Shown here piece by piece: positions 2,082 to 42,036 of a stretch of DNA of 43,982 nt. This DNA is from a virus. How positions within the stretch are numbered: the stretch's first letter is position 1; each line of letters begins with the position of its first letter. The position numbers and the translations under genes are program-made. The notes under the pieces are model-generated. The model made no database searches. It was given only the letters and a program-made list of their open reading frames with translations, and had not been told where the DNA came from. The stretch lies in the UHGV virus genome UHGV-0179801. One strand, written 5' to 3'.

Positions 2082-2142
2082 TGGGGAATCCTCTTAGTAA
2101 ATGAAAAGAGGGACCGAAGTCCCTCTCGATTATAGCTTAACC

Positions 2143-3192
2143 TTAAGACCCGACACCAGTTACCAGGAAGGCAATCGGTACATGCTTACGTTCAACAACA
2201 CGGTTCCAGTTAGAGGCGTTCGCCAGGTCCTGCCAGGAAGCGGAGCGCGGGGTAGTCTCGGTGCCGTTGCCAGTGATTACTGCGCTGGTGAAGCTGTAGC
2301 CAAACGGATGCAGCAACCAGGTCTTACGGGTCCACAGGGTTTCAACGCCGCCGCCATTGCCGCGGGACTCTTCACGCTCATAGGCCAGCGGATTGGTTGG
2401 GTTGCCTTCACCATAACCGATAGCGCCGTTGCCGAAGATGATGGAGATGAACTTACGGCTAGGGCCAGTACCGACTACGGTCATGCTGTCGTCAACAATC
2501 ACGCGGTAGCCCTGGTAGGTGGCGAACAGGGTGTCGTTGTCAGCGTTTTTGATGAAGTCGATAAGCTGCTGCTTACGGGCCTGCGCGTATACGAAGCTGT
2601 GCATAGCGATAGTGCCCAGCACTTCACCACCGTTGCCCATCAGCGCGTCACCCATAGTCTGGGTAGCGTCGATGAACGCGCCTGCGTCGAAGCCCAGAGT
2701 AGAGGACACGTCGATTACCATGTCGTTCTGCTCGTGATATGCGTCGGTGGCGGCTACGTTGTCATTGTACAGACCGAGCGCGGTGGCGATCAGACGGCGT
2801 TGTGCCTGGCGCTGCCAGAAGTTATCCAGGCGGGATGCTACGGATTGCAGCGGGTTCTGGCTGGTCAGTTCTACCGTCAAATCCGCCTGACCAAAGCCTT
2901 CGTTCAGGTACGCAACGCGGGCCATCATCTCACCGGTCTGCACATTACGCGGGGTAGCGATGTCCTGGTATACGTCGTTCGAGTAGTTCGGCTCGATAGA
3001 GGTATCAATCGCTTTCCAGAAAGGAATATTAGCGATGTTGGACGGGCCGCGGGCAATCTCGGCAGCGTACGGAGTCGGAGTCAGAATACCGGACTGGAAG
3101 AACGCGGTTTTTTCTACCGGGTCCTCGGTCATATAAGATGCCAGGACCGGGATGTTGCCAGTTACGATATCGCCGATAGTGGTAATTGCCAT
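2143..3192 (-). CDS. major capsid protein
   Basis: 349-aa ORF directly after the scaffold gene; AGGAA RBS; size and position typical of an HK97-fold capsid protein. Confidence 0.7.
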   Translation of the reverse strand: MAITTIGDIVTGNIPVLASYMTEDPVEKTAFFQSGILTPTPYAAEIARGPSNIANIPFWKAIDTSIEPNYSNDVYQDIATPRNVQTGEMMARVAYLNEGFGQADLTVELTSQNPLQSVASRLDNFWQRQAQRRLIATALGLYNDNVAATDAYHEQNDMVIDVSSTLGFDAGAFIDATQTMGDALMGNGGEVLGTIAMHSFVYAQARKQQLIDFIKNADNDTLFATYQGYRVIVDDSMTVVGTGPSRKFISIIFGNGAIGYGEGNPTNPLAYEREESRGNGGGVETLWTRKTWLLHPFGYSFTSAVITGNGTETTPRSASWQDLANASNWNRVVERKHVPIAFLVTGVGS

Positions 3193-3194
3193 TA

Positions 3195-3896
3195 TTATTT
3201 CCTCAGGGCTTTAAGTTGCCGTTCAAATTCGGCAGGGTTCGATTTATACAGAGCTAAACGCTCCGCTTCACTCATGTCTTTAAACGCTGGTGCGGCCCCG
3301 CCGCCTTTGCTACCGGAAGCCCCGCCGCCGGAAGCTGCATTTGCTTTAATCAAATGCGAAAACGCTTTGTGTTCACGCAGATATTTGCGGAACTGTTCCG
3401 GGTCAGTCGTGATTACGTTACCGTCTGCGCTGACAAACTTAGTAACCACATCATCGCCTTCGAACTCAGTCTTAACGAACGGTGCAAGGATGTCCACTGC
3501 TTCCGGGGTGATAAAGTCACCTGCGAAAGAGCCTAACACCGCTTTACGTTCGCTACCGAGAATGCGCTCTGCCATTCTGGAGATGCGGCCATCTTTCTCG
3601 GCTAACACCGGGTCATACTGGCTACGAATCGTCTTTTCGAACTCGTCCATCTTACCAGCGGCTTTTAACGCCTCCTGGTGGGCACGCTGCCGTTCTTCTT
3701 CGGCCTCTTTTGCTTTACGAGCGGCTTCTTTCTTCTCCGCAAGTAATGCTTCCTGATTAGCCTTAAGCCCGGCAACTTCTTTCTCAATCAGCGCCTGAAC
3801 TTCTTCAGCGGTGAACATTTTCGGTGCGTCACCGCCGCCAGATTTATCTTCTGCTCCAGCTTCTTCCTGGAACGGATAACGTAAAAAACGATTCAT
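3195..3896 (-). CDS. scaffolding protein
   Basis: Ala/Glu/Lys-rich predicted coiled coil (EALLAEKKEAARKAKEAEEERQRAHQEALKAAGK) just upstream of the capsid gene. Start uncertain: ATG at 3896 chosen; track start 3950 is a TTG. Confidence 0.6.
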   Translation of the reverse strand: MNRFLRYPFQEEAGAEDKSGGGDAPKMFTAEEVQALIEKEVAGLKANQEALLAEKKEAARKAKEAEEERQRAHQEALKAAGKMDEFEKTIRSQYDPVLAEKDGRISRMAERILGSERKAVLGSFAGDFITPEAVDILAPFVKTEFEGDDVVTKFVSADGNVITTDPEQFRKYLREHKAFSHLIKANAASGGGASGSKGGGAAPAFKDMSEAERLALYKSNPAEFERQLKALRK

Positions 3897-3978
3897 AGTC
3901 AGTATGTCCCCTGGACGTTGGAATCCGGGCCACCCGGATTTACATGTCAAGAATAAATTATTCCAACATGCAAGGCAA

Positions 3979-4242
3979 CTATTCCAGAATATTCCTCACA
4001 TAATCCTGCAACATGAACACTTTCAGTCTCAGTTGCCGTGCACATTCGGCATTCTGAACGTCGATAGCTAAATCCTCGTCCGCGTCGCTACTTGGCGGCG
4101 CCAGTTTGCACGGCGGCTGCATCATCGTCATATCCGGGGATGGAATTAGCGTTTGCGACGGCGCGGGACTTGAGCAGGACGCGAGCATCGTCGAAAGTGC
4201 ACACGCTGCGGCCAGGCGTTTTAATGTACTTAACGACTTCAC
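3979..4242 (-). CDS. o-spanin (Rz1-like outer-membrane lipoprotein)
   Basis: Signal peptide with lipobox LASC then a Pro-rich mature region; begins in the +1 frame inside the Rz-like gene and extends past its stop (overlapped spanin architecture). Confidence 0.55.
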   Translation of the reverse strand: MKSLSTLKRLAAACALSTMLASCSSPAPSQTLIPSPDMTMMQPPCKLAPPSSDADEDLAIDVQNAECARQLRLKVFMLQDYVRNILE

Positions 4243-4474
4243 GGGTAATCACCTCTGATTTCGTCTTGCCTTCGTTGTCAGCGGCTGCGGCCTTTGATTC
4301 ATCCTGCTGCTGCCGTTGTGTTTTCTTTGCTAACTCGGTCTGTGCTTTCTGCTGTTGCTGCGAAACGAGATTCGCCCGGCCTTCGTTCCAGCCGCTGCGA
4401 TATTGGTAGATGCCGTGGGCGTAAGACAGGATGATGAAACATGCTCCTGCTACGACAGTTGCTTTAAGATTCAT
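4088..4474 (-). CDS. i-spanin (Rz-like)
   Basis: N-terminal TM helix (ATVVAGACFIILSYAHGIY) followed by a charged Gln/Lys/Glu-rich periplasmic coiled-coil region; AAAGGAGAAAC RBS; contains the embedded lipoprotein ORF. Confidence 0.55.
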   Translation of the reverse strand: MNLKATVVAGACFIILSYAHGIYQYRSGWNEGRANLVSQQQQKAQTELAKKTQRQQQDESKAAAADNEGKTKSEVITREVVKYIKTPGRSVCTFDDARVLLKSRAVANANSIPGYDDDAAAVQTGAAK

Positions 4475-4793
4475 GTTTCTCCTTTCTCGATAAGTAAAGC
4501 CCCGCCATAAAGCGGGGCGCTAGTCCTTATCATTTAAACATAGAAACGGCGTAATCTCAGTAAACCAGTTACTTTTTACACAAGCAATAGATTATGGCCC
4601 TTCCGAACGCGTCAGCGTAACTACACTCAGGACTTACGTCCCGCTCCGTTACCTGCCCGCGCCGCGGTCGCTTGTTCATACTTCACAAGCTCAGGTGGAG
4701 CTTAGCACATTTTTAGTGAAAAGTCAACTATTCGAATAGTTTATTCCAAGATTTACAATTCGGTGGAATAACTGGGATACCTAACCAAATAGT

Positions 4794-4822
4794 TTGCACA
4801 CACCAATATAATAGGGTACTAT
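4794..4822 (+). promoter_or_regulatory. sigma70-like promoter TTGCAC-N17-TACTAT with AATAG-N4-CTATT inverted repeat
   Basis: Conserved 25-nt block caccaatataatagggtactattca (4801-4825), near-identical at 6608 and 40231, followed by the conserved leader tcgaaacgaggaga and an ATG. Confidence 0.55.
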
Positions 4823-4850
4823 TCATTACATCGAAACGAGGAGATGAAAA

Positions 4851-5024
4851 ATGTTCAAAGAAAAAGACATAATGCACGAAAACGGCAAATACTGGGTTCT
4901 AAATGATAAAGGAGTGTACTGCGTAATGATTTCCGGGTTTACCCACGCTAAAGCTGATAGTGCATACGCTAGTTTAGATTTAGCGATAGCCCGCTGTGAT
5001 TATCTGGCGAGTAGAGACGCATAA
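4851..5024 (+). CDS. small moron protein (57 aa), hypothetical
   Basis: ATG 4851 after the conserved promoter/leader (gaggagatgaaaaATG); opposite strand to the flanking late genes; followed by a terminator hairpin. Confidence 0.5.
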   Translation: MFKEKDIMHENGKYWVLNDKGVYCVMISGFTHAKADSAYASLDLAIARCDYLASRDA

Positions 5025-5027
5025 ACT

Positions 5028-5050
5028 AAGGCCCCGTAATGGGGCCTTTT
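5028..5050 (+). terminator. rho-independent terminator (AAGGCCCC-gtaat-GGGGCCTT-TT)
   Basis: Perfect 8-bp GC-rich stem, 5-nt loop, T-run; member of a conserved hairpin family recurring at 7183, 30767 and 42010. Confidence 0.6.
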
Positions 5051-5051
5051 A

Positions 5052-5510
5052 TCAATCTGGCTTAGTGACCTTCGCCGCCTTGCTTACCACCTCAACTCCA
5101 TCGGTATCAGTAACTTTAACGAAGTATTCGCCAGCTGCGTTAACCGACAGAGACAAAGCCTGTTCTGGTGCGTTAACCACTTCCTTACCGTCCTTGTACC
5201 AGGTCAGAGTATACGGCGCTTTACCCGCTTTAACTTCGACAGTGATAGTTGCGCTGCCGTCTGCCAGTTCGGCGTCCTGCGGTTGCACAGAGAAATACAC
5301 ATCGCCAGCATCAGCCAGATACGGAATCTCATAAAGCATACCCGCCGCCGGCAGCGCAATACCGGTTTTATCTGCAAACGGCATATCGTCTACGGGCGTA
5401 CCGAGTACACTTTCATCTTCAATAAATACCACGTTCTCGCCGGAGCCAGACACGCGGGCGTACTGGACTACGCGACGCGCGGGTACATCAGTTACTTTGA
5501 AAAAGCCCAT
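5052..5510 (-). CDS. Ig-like domain structural protein
   Basis: Track ORF; GGGGA RBS; C-terminal Ig-like signature (APYTLTWYKDGKEV ... GEYFVKVTD); downstream of the head morphogenesis gene. Confidence 0.5.
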   Translation of the reverse strand: MGFFKVTDVPARRVVQYARVSGSGENVVFIEDESVLGTPVDDMPFADKTGIALPAAGMLYEIPYLADAGDVYFSVQPQDAELADGSATITVEVKAGKAPYTLTWYKDGKEVVNAPEQALSLSVNAAGEYFVKVTDTDGVEVVSKAAKVTKPD

Positions 5511-5512
5511 CG

Positions 5513-6556
5513 TTATTCCCCTTTCAGATAATCAGCAACACGTTTATCGAGTTCCGCCATCTGCTTAAGCGTCAGCGGATTCCCGAAACCATCTACAGAT
5601 ATTACGCGAAACTCTTCCGGTGATATACCGCTGTTACGGAAAATCTTACCGCGTGTCGGCCCGAGTGCTTCATCCTGAAACCATGCCGGTTGTTGTTTCA
5701 GGAACTCGTAATAGGTTGTGTCCGCGCTTACCTGAGTTCCTCCGTCTGCACCCTTAGCCGCACGTTTTGCGCCTTTATCGAGGAAGTCGAACTCCGAGCT
5801 AATTACCGGAGCCGTGCACGACCGGCAGTTCGGATGGGCGGGGGGCATCGGCCCTTTACCAATTTCCCACGTCATCCCGTCTCTGGCTCTGCAAATCGTA
5901 CTTGTACGGCTGTCGAGGGTGGATACCCACTCGTACTTCTCGATGATGTCGTCGTTCTGACGGTACGTCTCGTTACGTGCTTCGTTGGACACGTGGGACA
6001 GCGCGGTGCGTATTACAGTAGCCGCATTGCGCTCAGAGACATCGGCCAGGCCACCCGCGCCAACAACATTCTTAACAATCTGCCGTGTGGTTTGGCCTTG
6101 TACAAATCCCATCTTAACGCCCGTTACCAGGCGCGCGACCTCCGCTTCGCCCCAGCCATCCATCAGCTTGGTGAAATCGACAGGCTTGTCACTTAGTGAC
6201 AGAGGTTGAAACTCGGCAGCGGCCCACACCTGCTCAGCGGTAGGAGTAATAAATTCTGCGTTAACATTGGTCGTCAGTGTTTTTACGTTCCACTCAGCCT
6301 CATATGCCGCCAGTTCCTTAAGGTCTTCTGTCAGCTTTGTTTGCCAGTCACCTGTAAGGCCTGCCAGTGCTTCTTCGAGGTCGCGTAACAGTTTATTCAG
6401 TCTGGCGGTGCTGCGACCGTCGTCGCCGAATAACAGCACCTGCCGTTTTATTTCGTCACGCATCTCCTGAATGAACGGTGTGAGGTCTTTCACCTCGCCG
6501 GATGCGGTGCGTTGCAGCCATATCTGGTGGCTGATTAAGGATGTAAGTAAGCTCAT
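5513..6556 (-). CDS. head morphogenesis / minor capsid protein (Mu F-like, SPP1 gp7-like)
   Basis: Motif STLDSRTSTICRARDG typical of the Mu-F/gp7 family; located after the portal gene; ATG 6556 with GGAGGG RBS preferred over the track start 6613. Confidence 0.65.
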   Translation of the reverse strand: MSLLTSLISHQIWLQRTASGEVKDLTPFIQEMRDEIKRQVLLFGDDGRSTARLNKLLRDLEEALAGLTGDWQTKLTEDLKELAAYEAEWNVKTLTTNVNAEFITPTAEQVWAAAEFQPLSLSDKPVDFTKLMDGWGEAEVARLVTGVKMGFVQGQTTRQIVKNVVGAGGLADVSERNAATVIRTALSHVSNEARNETYRQNDDIIEKYEWVSTLDSRTSTICRARDGMTWEIGKGPMPPAHPNCRSCTAPVISSEFDFLDKGAKRAAKGADGGTQVSADTTYYEFLKQQPAWFQDEALGPTRGKIFRNSGISPEEFRVISVDGFGNPLTLKQMAELDKRVADYLKGE

Positions 6557-6600
6557 ATGCCCTCCTGTAGTATCGACAGTGTAACGCATAAAAATAATAT

Positions 6601-6629
6601 TTGCAGACACCAATATAATAGGGTACTAT
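6601..6629 (+). promoter_or_regulatory. sigma70-like promoter TTGCAG-N17-TACTAT (conserved family)
   Basis: Same 25-nt block as at 4801 and 40231, followed by the conserved leader tcgaaacgaggagatgagaaATG. Confidence 0.55.
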
Positions 6630-6656
6630 TCAGTTATCGAAACGAGGAGATGAGAA

Positions 6657-7178
6657 ATGGTTACTACAGTAATTACTTTCCCTGCGTATGTAGGGGCGAA
6701 AATCTGCAGGGCGAAAAATGATGTGCGCTATTATTTGAACGCTTTTTACATAGACCCTGAAGGATTGATAGTTTCTACGGATGGTCACAGATTGTTCTGC
6801 GACAACGTGAAGACAAACGTCGAAACTGGAGTTCTAATAGACATCAAAGGGAGGGAGCCTTCTAAATTTAACTACGCGGAGGTAGACCACGACAACGGTA
6901 GTGTTTCTTTCTATGACGATAGTAGTGCGCTTGTATGTACACTTCCTATTGAAGTTGTAGACGGGAGATTTCCTTACTGGAGACGTGTGGCCGGCATTAC
7001 GCCGGGTTCAGTCGATAGCATAGGGTTCTCTCTGCGCTATTTGGCGGACGCGTACAAGATTTCTAAGGCATACAAAAATGAAATTGCCCGTTTCGATTTC
7101 CAGGACCAAACAAACGGATGCAAAATATCATTTTCAAACACTGCATTTATGGTGCTAATGCCAGCGCGATTTAAATAA
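6657..7178 (+). CDS. truncated DnaN-like (beta sliding clamp) protein, 173 aa
   Basis: Matches to recalled E. coli DnaN: NDVRYYLN (DnaN DVRYYLNG), STDGHRL (ATDGHRLA), VVDGRFPYWRRV (LVDGRFPDYRRV), SIGFSLRYLAD (EIGFNVSYVLD), C-terminal AFMVLMPARFK (AYVVMPMRL). Roughly half DnaN length; own promoter and terminator. Confidence 0.7.
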   Translation: MVTTVITFPAYVGAKICRAKNDVRYYLNAFYIDPEGLIVSTDGHRLFCDNVKTNVETGVLIDIKGREPSKFNYAEVDHDNGSVSFYDDSSALVCTLPIEVVDGRFPYWRRVAGITPGSVDSIGFSLRYLADAYKISKAYKNEIARFDFQDQTNGCKISFSNTAFMVLMPARFK

Positions 7179-7182
7179 AACT

Positions 7183-7208
7183 AAGGCCCCGAAAGGGGCC
7201 TTTTCTTT
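7183..7208 (+). terminator. rho-independent terminator (AAGGCCCC-gaaa-GGGGCCTT-TTCTTT)
   Basis: 8-bp stem, GAAA loop, T-run, directly after the stop at 7176-7178; same hairpin family as 5028. Confidence 0.6.
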
Positions 7209-18086: not shown

Positions 18087-18455
18087 GAGAGTAGTTACGC
18101 TGCCGTTGTGATTCTTCAGGTAGGGTTGTGCCTTTATTCTTATTACTTGGTAACTAAAGGGCAGGCCTTAAGCCTGCCCGGTAAGGGTTACATTTTTACG
18201 GTTGCGAATCTACGGCACTTTAATAAAATCAGATACTTAAGAGATATGCCGCCGATGAAAATAGAGCTTGCCCAGGGCAACCGGAGATACTTAGAAAGGA
18301 AAGTTACGATAATTCTTGTGTTCAGTAAACTTTCGCTTAACCCTTTGCTTAACGCACGGTTTAAGCGGTTTTACAAGGTGAACAAGAATCAAAGTAACTA
18401 AGATATAGAAGCACCTTAAACGAAGATTTTCATAATGTCAATAGGTGTGATTATG

Positions 18456-18484: not shown

Positions 18485-18517
18485 TCGATTTTGTTAACTG
18501 ATAATGAGGGTTTGAGA

Positions 18518-18688
18518 ATGACACAGAATGAAGTAGCCGAGCGTATCGGTGTTACTCGTCGCACGCTGAATAACTGGTTAAAGAGTGGGAAGTTCCCTGA
18601 TTGTTGTATTCGCATTATGGGCCGCCGTCAGCCAGGTACGTTTGACCGGGAGAAAGTGGAAGCGTGGATTAAGGAGAACGTGAAATGA
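18518..18688 (+). CDS. AlpA/excisionase-like HTH DNA-binding protein (56 aa)
   Basis: EVAERIGVTRRTLNNWLKSGKFP resembles the AlpA-type helix-turn-helix; ATG 18518 with GAGGG RBS (track start 18491 is a TTG). Confidence 0.5.
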   Translation: MTQNEVAERIGVTRRTLNNWLKSGKFPDCCIRIMGRRQPGTFDREKVEAWIKENVK

Positions 18689-18918
18689 CCGAGTTTCAGT
18701 CACGGGTATTTACGGCGGTCGTTTCGTTAACGCATAAAAAAGGGTCGTGCAGCGTTATGGACTTGCGCCGTAGTTATTTTAGGTACTATAGTTCCGCCAT
18801 TATTGAAGGGTCGTTACGTGTACTGGTTAAATCTGGTGTCGTGAAAAACGTTGGCGGGAAATATAGTGCCGTTGCCGAAGTTCGCGGAATGACATCTACT
18901 TTAGAAGACCTGGAATAA
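18685..18918 (+). CDS. hypothetical protein (77 aa)
   Basis: Track ORF; ATGA coupling to the upstream gene. Confidence 0.5.
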   Translation: MTEFQSRVFTAVVSLTHKKGSCSVMDLRRSYFRYYSSAIIEGSLRVLVKSGVVKNVGGKYSAVAEVRGMTSTLEDLE

Positions 18919-21555: not shown

Positions 21556-21584
21556 AAAAAAAATAAAGGGGCGTTAAGCCCCTT
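21551..21584 (-). terminator. rho-independent terminator for the XRE gene (minus strand)
   Basis: AAGGGGC/GCCCCTT stem with a 5-nt loop, followed on the minus strand by a >=10-nt T-run. Confidence 0.6.
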
Positions 21585-21789
21585 CACCAAACGCCAGCCA
21601 CTTTGCGTCTACTTGCAGCACTTCCGCCAGCTTGAACAGCGTCGCTGGACGTACGTCCTGAGTTACCCCAAGTGCCAGCTGGTTAATCGCGCCCTGGGAA
21701 ACACCGGCCAGGACAGCCAGACGGCGCTGGGAGATGCCGAGTTCTTTGCGGCGTTGTTCTACACGGATGCCTAGTTCAGATGGTTGCAT
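21574..21789 (-). CDS. XRE-family (Cro/CI-type) HTH transcriptional regulator (71 aa)
   Basis: LGISQRRLAVLAGVSQGAINQL is a classic HTH_3 helix-turn-helix; AAGGAG RBS; transcribed divergently from the early promoter at 21854. Confidence 0.7.
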   Translation of the reverse strand: MQPSELGIRVEQRRKELGISQRRLAVLAGVSQGAINQLALGVTQDVRPATLFKLAEVLQVDAKWLAFGEGA

Positions 21790-23179: not shown

Positions 23180-24417
23180 TTCTAAAAGAACGCGGCGGCA
23201 ATAACGATGTGCACGCCTTATTGTCACCATCAGGCGCTAAAAAGTGGTTAAGTTGCGCCGCATCACTGGCCTGTGAAAAAGATATTCCTAACACGTCCGG
23301 TAAAGCAGCCGTTACAGGAACCGCGTGTCACACTATAGCTGAGGTCCATCTAAACCAGTACATCAAAGGCACTGCGCTGCCGTTAGAGCGTGAAGTCGGT
23401 GCCTACGTGCTGGATGAGGGTAAAGGCCAGATTAAGGCGCTAATCAGCCCGATGAAAGGCGCTGTACTGATTACGGCGGACATGATTGAGCAAGTGCGCA
23501 AGTACACCGACTACTGCAAACCGATTATTGACGTCGCGACTTATGCCAAGCTGGAAATGCGCGTCAATCTTACTGAGGTATTGCATCCTGGTTATGAAGA
23601 CGTCGAGACGTTCGGGACAGCCGACCTTGTTGCCGTTCAGGAGCTGGCTAACTCCGACGAGCACATGCTTATCGTCGGCGACCTTAAAACCGGACGGCAT
23701 CGTGTCGAAGCGAAAGAAAACAAACAGCTTATGCTATACGCTCTCGGTGTTTATCGCCGACTCAAGAGACGTTATAACATCACCGTGGTTCGTCTGGTCA
23801 TCTTCCAGCCCTACGCTGGTGGTGCGTCGGAGTGGGACATCTCGGTTGAAGGCCTTGAACTGTTCGCTAAGTTTGCGCAGAAACGCGCACTGTTAGCTCT
23901 TGATGCGTATTTCCGTGGTAAGAAGAACCTGAAAGCATCGGATTTCAAGCCGTCTGTCGATGGTTGTCAGTGGTGTCGGTTCTCTGAACAATGCGCCGCG
24001 CGTACAAAGACGGTTAATTCTGTACTGGCAGAAGAACTGGAAGACGACTTTGCGCTGGAACTTACACCAGAGCAACTCGTAGCTGAGTATGAGAAGTTGC
24101 CGTTGTTGCGCCAGCACATCGACAAGGTTGAGAAAGCTATGGCCGCCGCGTTGCATTCCGGTAAGAAAGTGCCAGGGTACAAGCTGGTTGAAGGTAAGAT
24201 GGGCAACCGTGCGTGGAAAGACGCGGAGAAAGTGGCAGAACTGTACGGCGACAAGCTGACTAAAGAAGTGCTCATGACACCGACCGAAGCGGTTAAAGTA
24301 ATACCGGAAGAAGAACTGAAAGACTTCATTACCCGTAAGCCTGGCGCGCCATGCGTCGCAACGGCAGACGACAAACGGCCTGAATGGAATCAGGTTAGTG
24401 AAGAAGATTTGGAATAA
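23176..24417 (+). CDS. PD-(D/E)XK nuclease, Cas4/RecB-like recombination exonuclease
   Basis: Nuclease core GTADLVAV ... IVGDLKTG; one N-terminal Cys plus C-terminal CQWCRFSEQC cluster as in Cas4-like Fe-S nucleases; ATGA coupling upstream. Confidence 0.65.
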   Translation: MILKERGGNNDVHALLSPSGAKKWLSCAASLACEKDIPNTSGKAAVTGTACHTIAEVHLNQYIKGTALPLEREVGAYVLDEGKGQIKALISPMKGAVLITADMIEQVRKYTDYCKPIIDVATYAKLEMRVNLTEVLHPGYEDVETFGTADLVAVQELANSDEHMLIVGDLKTGRHRVEAKENKQLMLYALGVYRRLKRRYNITVVRLVIFQPYAGGASEWDISVEGLELFAKFAQKRALLALDAYFRGKKNLKASDFKPSVDGCQWCRFSEQCAARTKTVNSVLAEELEDDFALELTPEQLVAEYEKLPLLRQHIDKVEKAMAAALHSGKKVPGYKLVEGKMGNRAWKDAEKVAELYGDKLTKEVLMTPTEAVKVIPEEELKDFITRKPGAPCVATADDKRPEWNQVSEEDLE

Positions 24418-25146: not shown

Positions 25147-25165
25147 TATCTGAATCAATTTTACT

Positions 25166-25189
25166 AAGGCCCTTCATTGGGCCTTTTTA
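25166..25189 (+). terminator. rho-independent terminator (AAGGCCC-ttcatt-GGGCCTT-TTT)
   Basis: 7-bp stem and T-run about 20 nt after the SSB-like stop. Confidence 0.55.
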
Positions 25190-30766: not shown

Positions 30767-30793
30767 AAGGCCCCAAACGGGGCCTTAGTTTTA
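30767..30793. terminator. bidirectional rho-independent terminator (AAGGCCCC-aaac-GGGGCCTT)
   Basis: 8-bp stem; T-rich tracts on both strands (agtttta on plus, ttttctct on minus); sits between the convergent replication operon and the tailspike gene. Confidence 0.6.
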
Positions 30794-39341: not shown

Positions 39342-39666
39342 GATTTCTACCTTCAAAGATTGCTTCTAAGCCCATGATAATGTCTATCTCGAACAGGCTA
39401 AGCTGTTTTTGCGTAACATCGAGATAGGCTTTCAGGTCTTGCCACGTAACGGATTCTCTTGCAAACAATACTACAGCGTCCTCGCGCACGTGTCGCGTAA
39501 ACTTAATGTCACAGTACGTCTCAAAGGTGGATATAAAAAGGGGCGGGCATTCTAGCCCACCCCGTCGCGCTGCACGTTTTTTCTTATCGATTACACCCAT
39601 CGCGATAAGCGCCTGTTCGTGTCCGTCAGCTATAGAATCAAACTCTCTGATTTTATGCTTGTCCAC
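39334..39666 (-). CDS. tail assembly chaperone, T-like frame (likely made as a G-T fusion)
   Basis: ORF in the -1 frame relative to the upstream chaperone; its frame stays open back to 39723, overlapping the last 8 codons of the G-like gene. Confidence 0.45.
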   Translation of the reverse strand: MDKHKIREFDSIADGHEQALIAMGVIDKKKRAARRGGLECPPLFISTFETYCDIKFTRHVREDAVVLFARESVTWQDLKAYLDVTQKQLSLFEIDIIMGLEAIFEGRNHG

Positions 39667-40115: not shown

Positions 40116-40222
40116 TCTTTGATCCTTTGGTTAAGAGGTTACAGGTTAAGGGAAATGCGCCAGACGGGAACCACCCGCTTTTCGTGTGCGACACTAGGCG
40201 CAAACTTATTCTAGCACACTAC

Positions 40223-40251
40223 TTGCACACCCCAATATAATAGGGTACTAT
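40223..40251 (+). promoter_or_regulatory. sigma70-like promoter TTGCAC-N17-TACTAT (conserved family)
   Basis: acttgcacaccccaatataatagggtactattca, the same block as at 4794 and 6601. Confidence 0.55.
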
Positions 40252-40281
40252 TCACTTACACCAACAATGGAGGAGTTTAAA

Positions 40282-42009: not shown

Positions 42010-42036
42010 AAGGCCCCTTTCGGGGCCTTAGTTTTA
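42010..42036. terminator. bidirectional rho-independent terminator (AAGGCCCC-tttc-GGGGCCTT)
   Basis: 8-bp stem with T-tracts on both strands, between the rightward cassette and the convergent major tail gene. Confidence 0.6.

Follow-up and report, generated by a model that had tools for sequence, protein, structure and literature searches.

The DNA analyzed here, UHGV virus genome UHGV-0179801 (43,982 nucleotides (nt); the whole stretch is hereafter called the window), is nearly the whole genome of a Kagunavirus-like siphophage of the Guernseyvirinae, and our subject is a GC-rich hairpin at positions 4499-4518 in the leader of its Rz-like spanin gene. The surrounding segment (3900-5100) shares 94-96% identity with many phages of Escherichia and Salmonella. 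Following the annotation of the relatives Bas76 and phiWAO78-1, the minus strand successively encodes the terminase, the portal, a head-morphogenesis protein (5513-6613), and a Hoc-like protein (5052-5510), then Rz/Rz1, the scaffold, and the capsid. The Rz-like i-spanin gene (4088..4474, 128 amino acids (aa)) starts at an ATG at 4474-4472 and overlaps an o-spanin (Rz1) open reading frame (ORF; 3979..4242); after these come the genes for the scaffold (ATG at 3896), the major capsid protein (ATG at 3192), and head-tail and tail proteins, all on the minus strand. Holin and endolysin are encoded ca. 8 kb away from the spanin genes. The ca. 330 nt preceding Rz are either empty in the annotation of relatives or carry a hypothetical ORF of 36 aa, and it is in this interval that the hairpin lies.

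On the plus strand, positions 4499-4518 read GCCCCGC-CATAAA-GCGGGGC. In the Rz-sense RNA of the minus strand, the same positions form an apical hairpin that we call H6 (GCCCCGCU-UUAU-GGCGGGGC), with 8 base pairs (bp; seven G-C/C-G pairs and a closing U-G) and a loop of 4 nt. Directly 3' of it lies a weak U-tract, UUUACUUAU (4498-4490), followed by the Shine-Dalgarno (SD) sequence of Rz, AAGGAG (4479..4484), and 24 nt separate the H6 stem from the Rz ATG. A previous sequence-only reading had described this hairpin ca. 25 nt ahead of the Rz start together with its weak minus-strand T-tract, and the sequence of both strands bears out this description in full. The folding energy calculation that it had proposed as a check gave -17.9 kcal/mol for the minus strand (z score -3.55; equaled by 0 of 200 shuffles) versus -16.1 kcal/mol for the plus strand. 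The window is ca. 9-fold enriched in such GC-rich hairpins: there are 13 loci with a perfect stem of 7 bp, six or more G-C pairs, and a loop of 3-8 nt, compared to 1.47 +/- 1.27 in dinucleotide shuffles (none of 100 shuffles reached 13), and all-GC 7-bp stems occur three times versus 0.25 expected.

H6 is present in 176 of 181 related phage records that cover the leader. We also collected 48 IMG/VR loci via the Rz protein and aligned their upstream regions, among which the last 100 nt of the leader are represented by 27 distinct variants; all 42 distinct IMG/VR leader variants that were aligned contain H6. Three independent compensatory double changes occur in its stem, i.e., C-G to U-A in loci L024 and L026, C-G to G-C in a Jerseyvirus-like group (L039-L048, hereafter the Jersey type), and, within that group, G-C to A-U in L044 and L045. 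With the stem kept by these double changes and each of the four bases found at one loop position, the pattern bespeaks selection on the pairing of H6. The GC-rich hairpin is thus real and evolutionarily conserved, not a product of chance. Its suggested role as an insulator of the spanins against antisense read-through must be dismissed: H6 is terminator-like in the orientation of the Rz-sense (minus) strand, whereas on the plus strand, the hairpin lies downstream of the Rz antisense and is followed by no T run (GCTAGTCCTTATC), and a plus-strand terminator was rejected for this reason.

H6 is the tip of a considerably larger structure. The 101 nt of the minus strand at 4460-4560 fold into one long irregular stem-loop with a minimum free energy of -34.4 kcal/mol (z score -4.66), of which ca. 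95 nt (4465..4559) comprise helices H1 to H6. At its base, the Rz start codon and the two codons after it are paired in H1 (UGAGAUU..CG/UG.AAUCUUA; 4553-4559 and 4550-4551 with 4465-4473), and the spacer between SD and AUG is paired in H2 (GUUUCU/AGAAAC; 4542-4547 with 4475-4480). H3 (UUU/GAA; 4536-4538 with 4484-4486), H4 (UGAUAAG/CUUAUCG; 4526-4532 with 4488-4494), and H5 (UAG/UUA; 4520-4522 with 4495-4497) continue the stem up to H6, and the bases of the U-tract double as the 3' strands of H5 (UUA) and H4 (CUUAU). Sequences of the Jersey type, with only ca. 65% identity in this region, independently fold to the same topology as the Kaguna type, and replacements between the two keep the pairing, i.e., GAUAAG/CUUAUC to UAUACG/CGUAUA, GUUUC/GAAAC to GUAU/AUAC, and UAG/UUA to UUAA/UUAG.

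In plain MAFFT alignments, indels misalign the Jersey type, and RNAalifold recovered from them only the core hairpin together with a long-range 5'-3' pairing, or else the closing stem, so that we relied on single-sequence folds and on an alignment of 27 sequences guided by a covariance model (R1) built from Kaguna-type sequences and their predicted structure. In this alignment, 96.8% of all H1-H6 cells form standard pairs versus ca. 50% with the partners slid, eight pairs are changed on both sides versus one to three in the slid controls, and none of 500 shuffles matched the observed pairing or covariation score; H1 and H2, scored as one helix, are 94.9% paired over 25 distinct sequences. Independent variants of single sequences agree with the structure as well (C18-G to U-G, U19-A to U-G, C10-G to U-G, G41-U to A-U, and U29-G to U-A). 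In locus L032, the deletion of 3 nt from the internal loop turns H4-H6 into a perfect 17-bp helix. Three further loci (L033, L036, and L049) stay near-identical over the leader and up to codon 5 of Rz before they diverge sharply at a mosaic breakpoint; because this breakpoint falls just beyond codon 5, the leader together with H1 behaves as one module. Among the roles offered by the sequence-only reading, an element of RNA structure or stability is hence the one that gains ground, since compensatory changes preserve a longer stem-loop reaching the SD and the start codon.

Upstream of this stem-loop, there is good comparative evidence for a putative sigma70-type promoter on the minus strand (TTGACT-17-TGcTAAGCT, 4699..4727) with its -35 element at 4722-4727, a TG at 4706-4707, and its -10 element at 4699-4704. 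The motif occurs only once in the window, and the Jersey type has its -35 (TAGACT or TTGACT), TGn, and -10 (TACGCT) at the same spacing with a replaced spacer sequence. Transcription would begin at ca. 4692, which would place H6 at ca. +175 to +194 and the Rz ATG at ca. +219. A perfect 16-bp palindrome, AACTATTCGAATAGTT (4726..4741), abuts the -35 element with its center at ca. -41.5 from this predicted transcription start site (TSS) and resembles an operator or activator site; a search for it with up to three mismatches gave two matches versus 0.14 expected. Further upstream lies an inverted repeat, TATTCC-N17-GGAATA (4742..4770; one match versus 0.04 expected). The Jersey type retains the ACTTT-N6-AAAGT symmetry of the palindrome with both half-sites altered and the inverted repeat with symmetric changes. 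As a separate observation, the motif TGGAATAA occurs five times in the window versus 1.1 expected (0 of 100 shuffles reached five), at 3958-3965 and 4741-4748 on the minus strand and at 4764-4771, 18911-18918, and 24410-24417 on the plus strand. An inverted pair upstream of the leader promoter and one copy just past Rz1 bracket the leader-Rz/Rz1 module, and the remaining two are ORF ends; the bracketing copies may be regulator sites or mark a module boundary.

The RNA from ca. 4692 to the ATG has a predicted folding energy of -79.0 kcal/mol in the sense orientation (z score -3.33; 0 of 200 shuffles) versus -57.9 kcal/mol in antisense (z score -2.55), and its G-U pairs exist only in the sense reading, which supports a sense RNA. 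Its predicted fold begins with a 5'-terminal hairpin and a multi-helix domain, continues with a weaker hairpin, and closes with the terminal stem-loop described above. The 5'-terminal hairpin (GCUUGU...ACAAGC, 4670..4690, minus strand) begins 2 nt past the predicted TSS and is 100% paired; in the Jersey type, it is replaced by ACGCU-UUC-AGCGU. The multi-helix 5' domain (4603..4667, minus strand) has CCGCGGCGC/GCGUUCGG as its closing stem and, inside it, the hairpin GGAC-GUAA-GUCC with a GNRA cap. When main copies, Jersey types, and the second copies introduced below are aligned by plain MAFFT, 89.4% of the cells of this domain are paired versus 31-41% when slid, and eight pairs are changed on both sides, with up to four pair types at single positions. 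The inner hairpin alone appears as GGAC/GUCC, GUGC/GCAC, CGGAC/GUCCG, GGGCG/CGCCC, GUGCC/GGCAC, and CACG/CGUG.

We rejected the 36-aa ORF of this interval (4569-4679, minus strand; a hypothetical protein in several relatives) as a coding sequence: it lies inside the structured leader, the Jersey type lacks its ATG, and 1-nt indels in four loci (L011, L021, L023, and L013) break its frame with the RNA pairs kept. Searches for transfer RNA and transfer-messenger RNA gave no match, and Rfam 15 covariance models gave none at gathering thresholds across the whole window and only chance-level matches (E of at least 1, including weak wcaG and CC0196) in 4300-5100. The leader of ca. 215 nt is an undescribed structured non-coding RNA that is not in Rfam. 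The sequence-only reading was partly right about the hairpin and missed its larger context of a promoter, operator-like palindromes, and a structured leader.

In around 20-30 Kagunaviruses, the leader promoter and 5' domain occur a second time, in diverged form, at the rightward early promoter; this copy lies beside a gene for an AlpA-like helix-turn-helix (HTH) protein and has a promoter of identical design. Examples are found at 12236-12365 of L116 and 11804-11933 of L075 (both minus strand) and at ca. 1240-1385 of L138-L140 (plus strand), and in L139 and L140, a (CTCA)n repeat and a hairpin with a UUCG cap follow the copy. The window has no second copy of the leader; the covariance model R2 finds a single 5' domain in it. 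Neither R1 nor R2 detected the leaders of Cornellviruses, an IMG/VR DNA-pattern scan for distant homologues returned only the same clades and chance matches, and the upstream regions of Klebsiella relatives are unrelated. The sequence TTGACAC-N6-TGTATAAT heads both the Cornellvirus Rz leader and the early leader of Bas76 (1179-1200 of L134 and 36298-36320 of L051); its -35-like and -10-like hexamers are just 8 nt apart, an odd spacing. This sharing suggests that promoter modules may have been exchanged between the early locus and the locus upstream of Rz.

In a terminator scan of 3000-7000, H6 with its U-tract is the top terminator-like site: the stem has the makeup of an intrinsic terminator, for which a GC-rich stem of 5-14 bp and a short loop are typical (eight pairs, seven of them G-C, a 4-nt loop, and -17.9 kcal/mol), and the tract UUUACUUAU is weak, with five T in its first eight bases and a break after three U. 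The directly homologous hairpin of phage VB_EcoS-Golestan, GCCCCGCTTTAAGGCGGGGCTTTACTTATCGA, located upstream of the spanin ORF7, is listed by ARNold as predicted terminator T03 at -17.7 kcal/mol (supplementary Table S5, PMC7203180); this entry is an in-silico list item without comparative analysis, extended structure, or promoter and leader context. In other branches of the subfamily, a strong hairpin is kept at this place and the U run lost, with UUAGCGUAU after the stem in the Jersey type and UGUUACGAG in the Cornellvirus type. In the Cornellviruses (Shemara, vB_STM-ZS, and PhiSTP1), the hairpin, GUAAUGGUG-U-GGGGU...ACCCC-CACUGUUAC, is likewise two-tiered and just as strong but unrelated; it ends just 5' of the SD and is followed by GAGGGG. 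The same scan called neither the Jersey nor the Cornell homologues as terminators. Judged from these sequences, termination is not what is conserved, and a U-tract-based terminator call fails across the subfamily. The partial terminator suggested by the sequence-only reading may apply to the lineage of the window, given the scan and the ARNold call in the homologue, but its terminator features are not conserved in Jerseyvirus or Cornellvirus.

Hairpins of this kind recur in the same operon, where two or three of them lie 14-25 nt before start codons. A sister hairpin, AAUCCGGG-UGG-CCCGGAUU (3922..3940, minus strand), stands 25 nt before the scaffold ATG and has no U-tract; in the Jersey type, its stem changes in a compensatory manner from AUCCGGG/CCCGGAU to CACCGGG/CCCGGUG, and a loop base varies. 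A further hairpin is found 14 nt before an ATG at 1703. Together, they look like a class of conserved stable hairpins just 5' of ribosome-binding sites (RBSs) in late mRNA.

We also observed an analogue in the early region (18150-18441, minus strand), where a promoter-like sequence (TTGACA-17-TAAGGT) heads a non-coding leader of ca. 270 nt and a two-tier hairpin, GUAAC…GGGCAGGC-UUAA-GCCUGCCC-UUUA-GUUAC, with its core at 18159-18179, GUAAC/GUUAC as its lower stem, and the same 3' "UUUA" as in the Rz leader. A strong promoter cassette and then the first early gene lie 3' of it, and this analogue could represent a leader of its own or a small RNA.

Strong sequestration of the Rz translation start was rejected as unsupported. 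The edges of the SD lie in H2 and H3, most of the SD falls within an internal loop, and opening energies of the initiation region are ordinary in the window and variable among relatives. RNAalifold proposed an alternative pairing, also covarying, of the 5' end of the leader (CUUGUGAAGU) with ACUUAUCGAG just 3' of the hairpin; in L028, this pairing is broken and the local 5' hairpin strengthened.

The interpretation that we favor, tentatively and with slightly less than even confidence, is that the hairpin is a structural element of the sense-strand mRNA, situated where a structured leader nears the RBS, and that leaky termination is a side activity particular to the lineage. A non-coding leader of ca. 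215 nt would be transcribed from the conserved sigma70-type promoter, and H6 would act in this minus-strand RNA as the apical clamp of the ca. 95-nt stem-loop that closes the leader. In the lower helices, upstream leader sequence would pair with the SD-AUG spacer and with the start codon and next two codons of Rz. The element would set a stable structural boundary just 5' of the Rz RBS that could serve as a barrier or protective end for an mRNA segment after processing. The moderately closed RBS context might also set a modest level of spanin translation at the head of the scaffold/capsid operon. In the Kagunavirus lineage of the window, H6 with UUUACUUAU would probably cause some leaky intrinsic termination ca. 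200 nt into the leader as well.

A sense-strand RNA is favored because of the G-U pairs and the strand asymmetry of 21 kcal/mol, and the element appears to be more than a terminator because its covarying lower helices have no role in termination. The structural interpretation further gains from the loss of the U-tract in the Jersey and Cornell types, where a strong hairpin persists, from the covarying U-less hairpin that also precedes the scaffold ATG, and from the consideration that a strong terminator at this site would starve the scaffold and capsid genes downstream.

Several observations weigh against it. The sequence of the window is terminator-like by our scan, as is the homologue by ARNold, and the hairpin at 18159-18179 carries UUUAGUUACC after a promoter-proximal non-coding leader, which fits a class of terminators or attenuators. 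The R1 alignment was itself fitted to the structure by the covariance model, and its covariation comes mostly from one deep split (Kaguna versus Jersey) and a few single-sequence variants. The opening cost of the Rz initiation region, 11.7 kcal/mol, ranks only 10th among 37 genes of the window and ranges from 6.1 to 14.9 kcal/mol in relatives. Finally, we found no transcript-boundary data for Kagunavirus or Jerseyvirus in the literature; the one RNA-seq study of a relative, a time course of K1B4, does not give transcript boundaries (PMC12645636).

If leaky intrinsic termination or attenuation were instead the main function, transcripts from the leader promoter, and those arriving from the head genes upstream, would mostly stop at ca. 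+200 and yield a leader RNA of ca. 200 nt, and expression of Rz, scaffold, and capsid would need read-through, possibly by antitermination. We consider this possible though on balance unlikely. The 8-bp GC stem, its 4-nt loop, five T in the first eight bases, the top rank in the scan, and the Golestan homologue all speak for it, as does the position of the hairpin ca. 175-203 nt past a conserved promoter with operator-like sites, a layout matching the PR'-6S RNA-tR'-lysis-head order of phage lambda. The early region repeats this arrangement of promoter, non-coding leader, and hairpin with UUUAGUUACC, and strong terminators farther down the late operon (2106-2127, 39540-39563, and 42010-42029) imply that some read-through mechanism exists. 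However, the weak U-tract is not kept together with the hairpin, covarying lower helices would be irrelevant to termination, and we found no clear antiterminator pairing with the 5' arm. Nor was there any Q- or N-like antiterminator in the annotation of Bas76 or among a subset of 20 early-region ORFs compared with PHROGs, of which just two encode regulators, both of them small HTH proteins (21574-21789, minus strand; 18491-18688, plus strand). A more far-reaching proposal, which we regard as improbable, is that the ca. 215-nt leader represents an undescribed class of cis-acting regulatory RNA of phages, whose 5' domain either modifies RNA polymerase (put-like, protein-independent processive antitermination) or recruits a phage factor, with H6 as the first terminator or gate to be overridden. 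Duplication of the promoter and 5' domain at the rightward early promoter in some Kagunaviruses and the resemblance of the Bas76 early promoter to the Cornellvirus Rz-leader promoter hint in this direction, and overriding the H6 gate would, if the proposal is true, license late-operon transcription through the strong downstream terminators.

Other accounts place the function in the stem as a whole. Cleavage by RNase III (or another endonuclease), as at the R-sites of phage T7 or in the lambda N leader, would cut near the H5/H4 junction, so that a protective hairpin stays at the 3' end of the leader and the Rz mRNA begins with a 5' untranslated region that is short and open. Such sites take ca. 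20 bp or more of coaxial irregular helix with an internal loop. An upper GC stem, an asymmetric internal loop, and a lower stem are what such a site could look like (ca. 18-19 bp predicted in H4-H6 and ca. 36 bp in total), L032 has a perfect 17-bp duplex, the hairpin at 18159-18179 shares the architecture including the 3' "UUUA" strand of the internal loop, and the RBS lies within the lower stem like in the lambda N leader. Yet the case is purely architectural, the sister hairpin before the scaffold gene (8-9 bp) is too short for RNase III, and the Cornell version differs in geometry, so that we think this improbable. We would give still less credence to a dedicated translational operator that strongly sequesters the SD and AUG of Rz until a factor, temperature, or an alternative pairing to the leader's 5' end opens the structure: it could explain why the SD-AUG spacer and the first three Rz codons are paired in H1/H2, which are conserved and show one compensatory pair as well as several G-U/A-U transitions, and the covarying pairing of CUUGUGAAGU with ACUUAUCGAG could be its switch, but this pairing is broken in L028, the SD is mostly in an internal loop, and the opening energy is ordinary. 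The least probable account, and a very improbable one, is that there is no RNA function and the hairpin reflects chance or a palindrome acting in DNA as a protein-binding or recombination site. Its core is indeed a perfect DNA palindrome on both strands that folds with -16.1 kcal/mol on the plus strand, and TGGAATAA motifs flank the module. The ca. 9-fold enrichment over shuffles, the compensatory stem changes beside a freely varying loop position, and the G-U pairs and strand asymmetry nonetheless point to a sense RNA.

A structural leader element of this kind can be compared with several known systems. In the late gate of lambda, the PR' promoter drives the 194-nt 6S leader RNA up to the terminator tR', followed by S-R-Rz/Rz1 and the head genes, and Q enables read-through. 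The Rz leader similarly combines a predicted sigma70 promoter, ca. 200 nt of non-coding leader, and a GC hairpin with spanin and head genes on the same strand. It differs in its weak and unconserved U-tract, in the lack of a Q-like gene among the 20 ORFs scanned, in holin and endolysin genes that lie elsewhere, and in a highly structured leader whose hairpin extends into the RBS. With the T7 R-sites and the RNase III site of the lambda N leader, the structure of which also involves the RBS, it shares a two-tier irregular hairpin just upstream of an RBS in a polycistronic phage transcript; this likeness is one of architecture only, with no relationship in sequence. Stable GC hairpins without a U-tract between cistrons also recall 3' barriers of the repetitive extragenic palindromic (REP) or puf type and protective 5' stem-loops of the ompA type. 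Unlike such intercistronic stabilizers, the Rz hairpin has additional lower helices reaching the start codon and follows a non-coding leader instead of a cistron. The putL and putR elements of phage HK022 are cis-acting processive antiterminator RNAs that follow both early promoters; each has ca. 70 nt and two stem-loops. Here, too, a structured RNA lies close to a promoter, occurs twice in ca. 20-30 Kagunaviruses, and has strong terminators downstream, but the 5' domain measures ca. 90 nt, comprises a terminal hairpin and a multi-helix junction, and occurs only once in the window, so that the likeness is limited to layout.

Some further features of the window concern neighboring genes. The Rz1 ORF is 87 aa long from its GTG start and has a signal peptide and a lipobox (LASC); in the relatives, Rz1 (Bas76_0009 and WAO781_gp11) is annotated as the last 47 aa only, from the ATG at 4122 and without the lipobox Cys, and this 47-aa version in public records is probably a start-codon mis-annotation. 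A small gene in reverse orientation (4851-5024, plus strand), located between the Hoc-like gene and the Rz leader, has its own promoter and a bidirectional terminator. Promoter and RBS cassettes of the type TTGCAC-17-TACTAT … GAGGAG are present in three copies on the plus strand (4791-4853, 6598-6659, and 40220-40258), each preceding a plus-strand gene inserted against the structural operon, and match the PHIRE "phage promoters" reported for Golestan. A family of bidirectional terminators, AAGGCCCC-NNNN-GGGGCCTT (5028-5048, 7183-7202, 30767-30786, 42010-42029, and ca. 25165-25185), flanks such reverse-oriented inserts and differs in sequence from the hairpin at 4499-4518. An ORF of 551 aa antisense to the capsid and scaffold genes (2101-3756, plus strand) has an Ala/Ser/Arg-rich, low-complexity translation and is spurious.

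Taken alone, the hairpin is routine, given that a predicted terminator had already been listed for a sister phage. What is new is that the ca. 300 bp ahead of the spanin genes, which more than 170 phage records leave empty or assign to a hypothetical ORF of 36 aa, hold a conserved promoter/operator region and a structured leader, and that the hairpin forms part of a longer covarying structure extending to the start codon of Rz. The Guernseyvirinae include widely used therapeutic phages and members of the BASEL collection, and to our knowledge their transcription control is essentially uncharted. The leader offers a testable entry point to how these phages may switch on and balance the expression of spanins, scaffold, and capsid.

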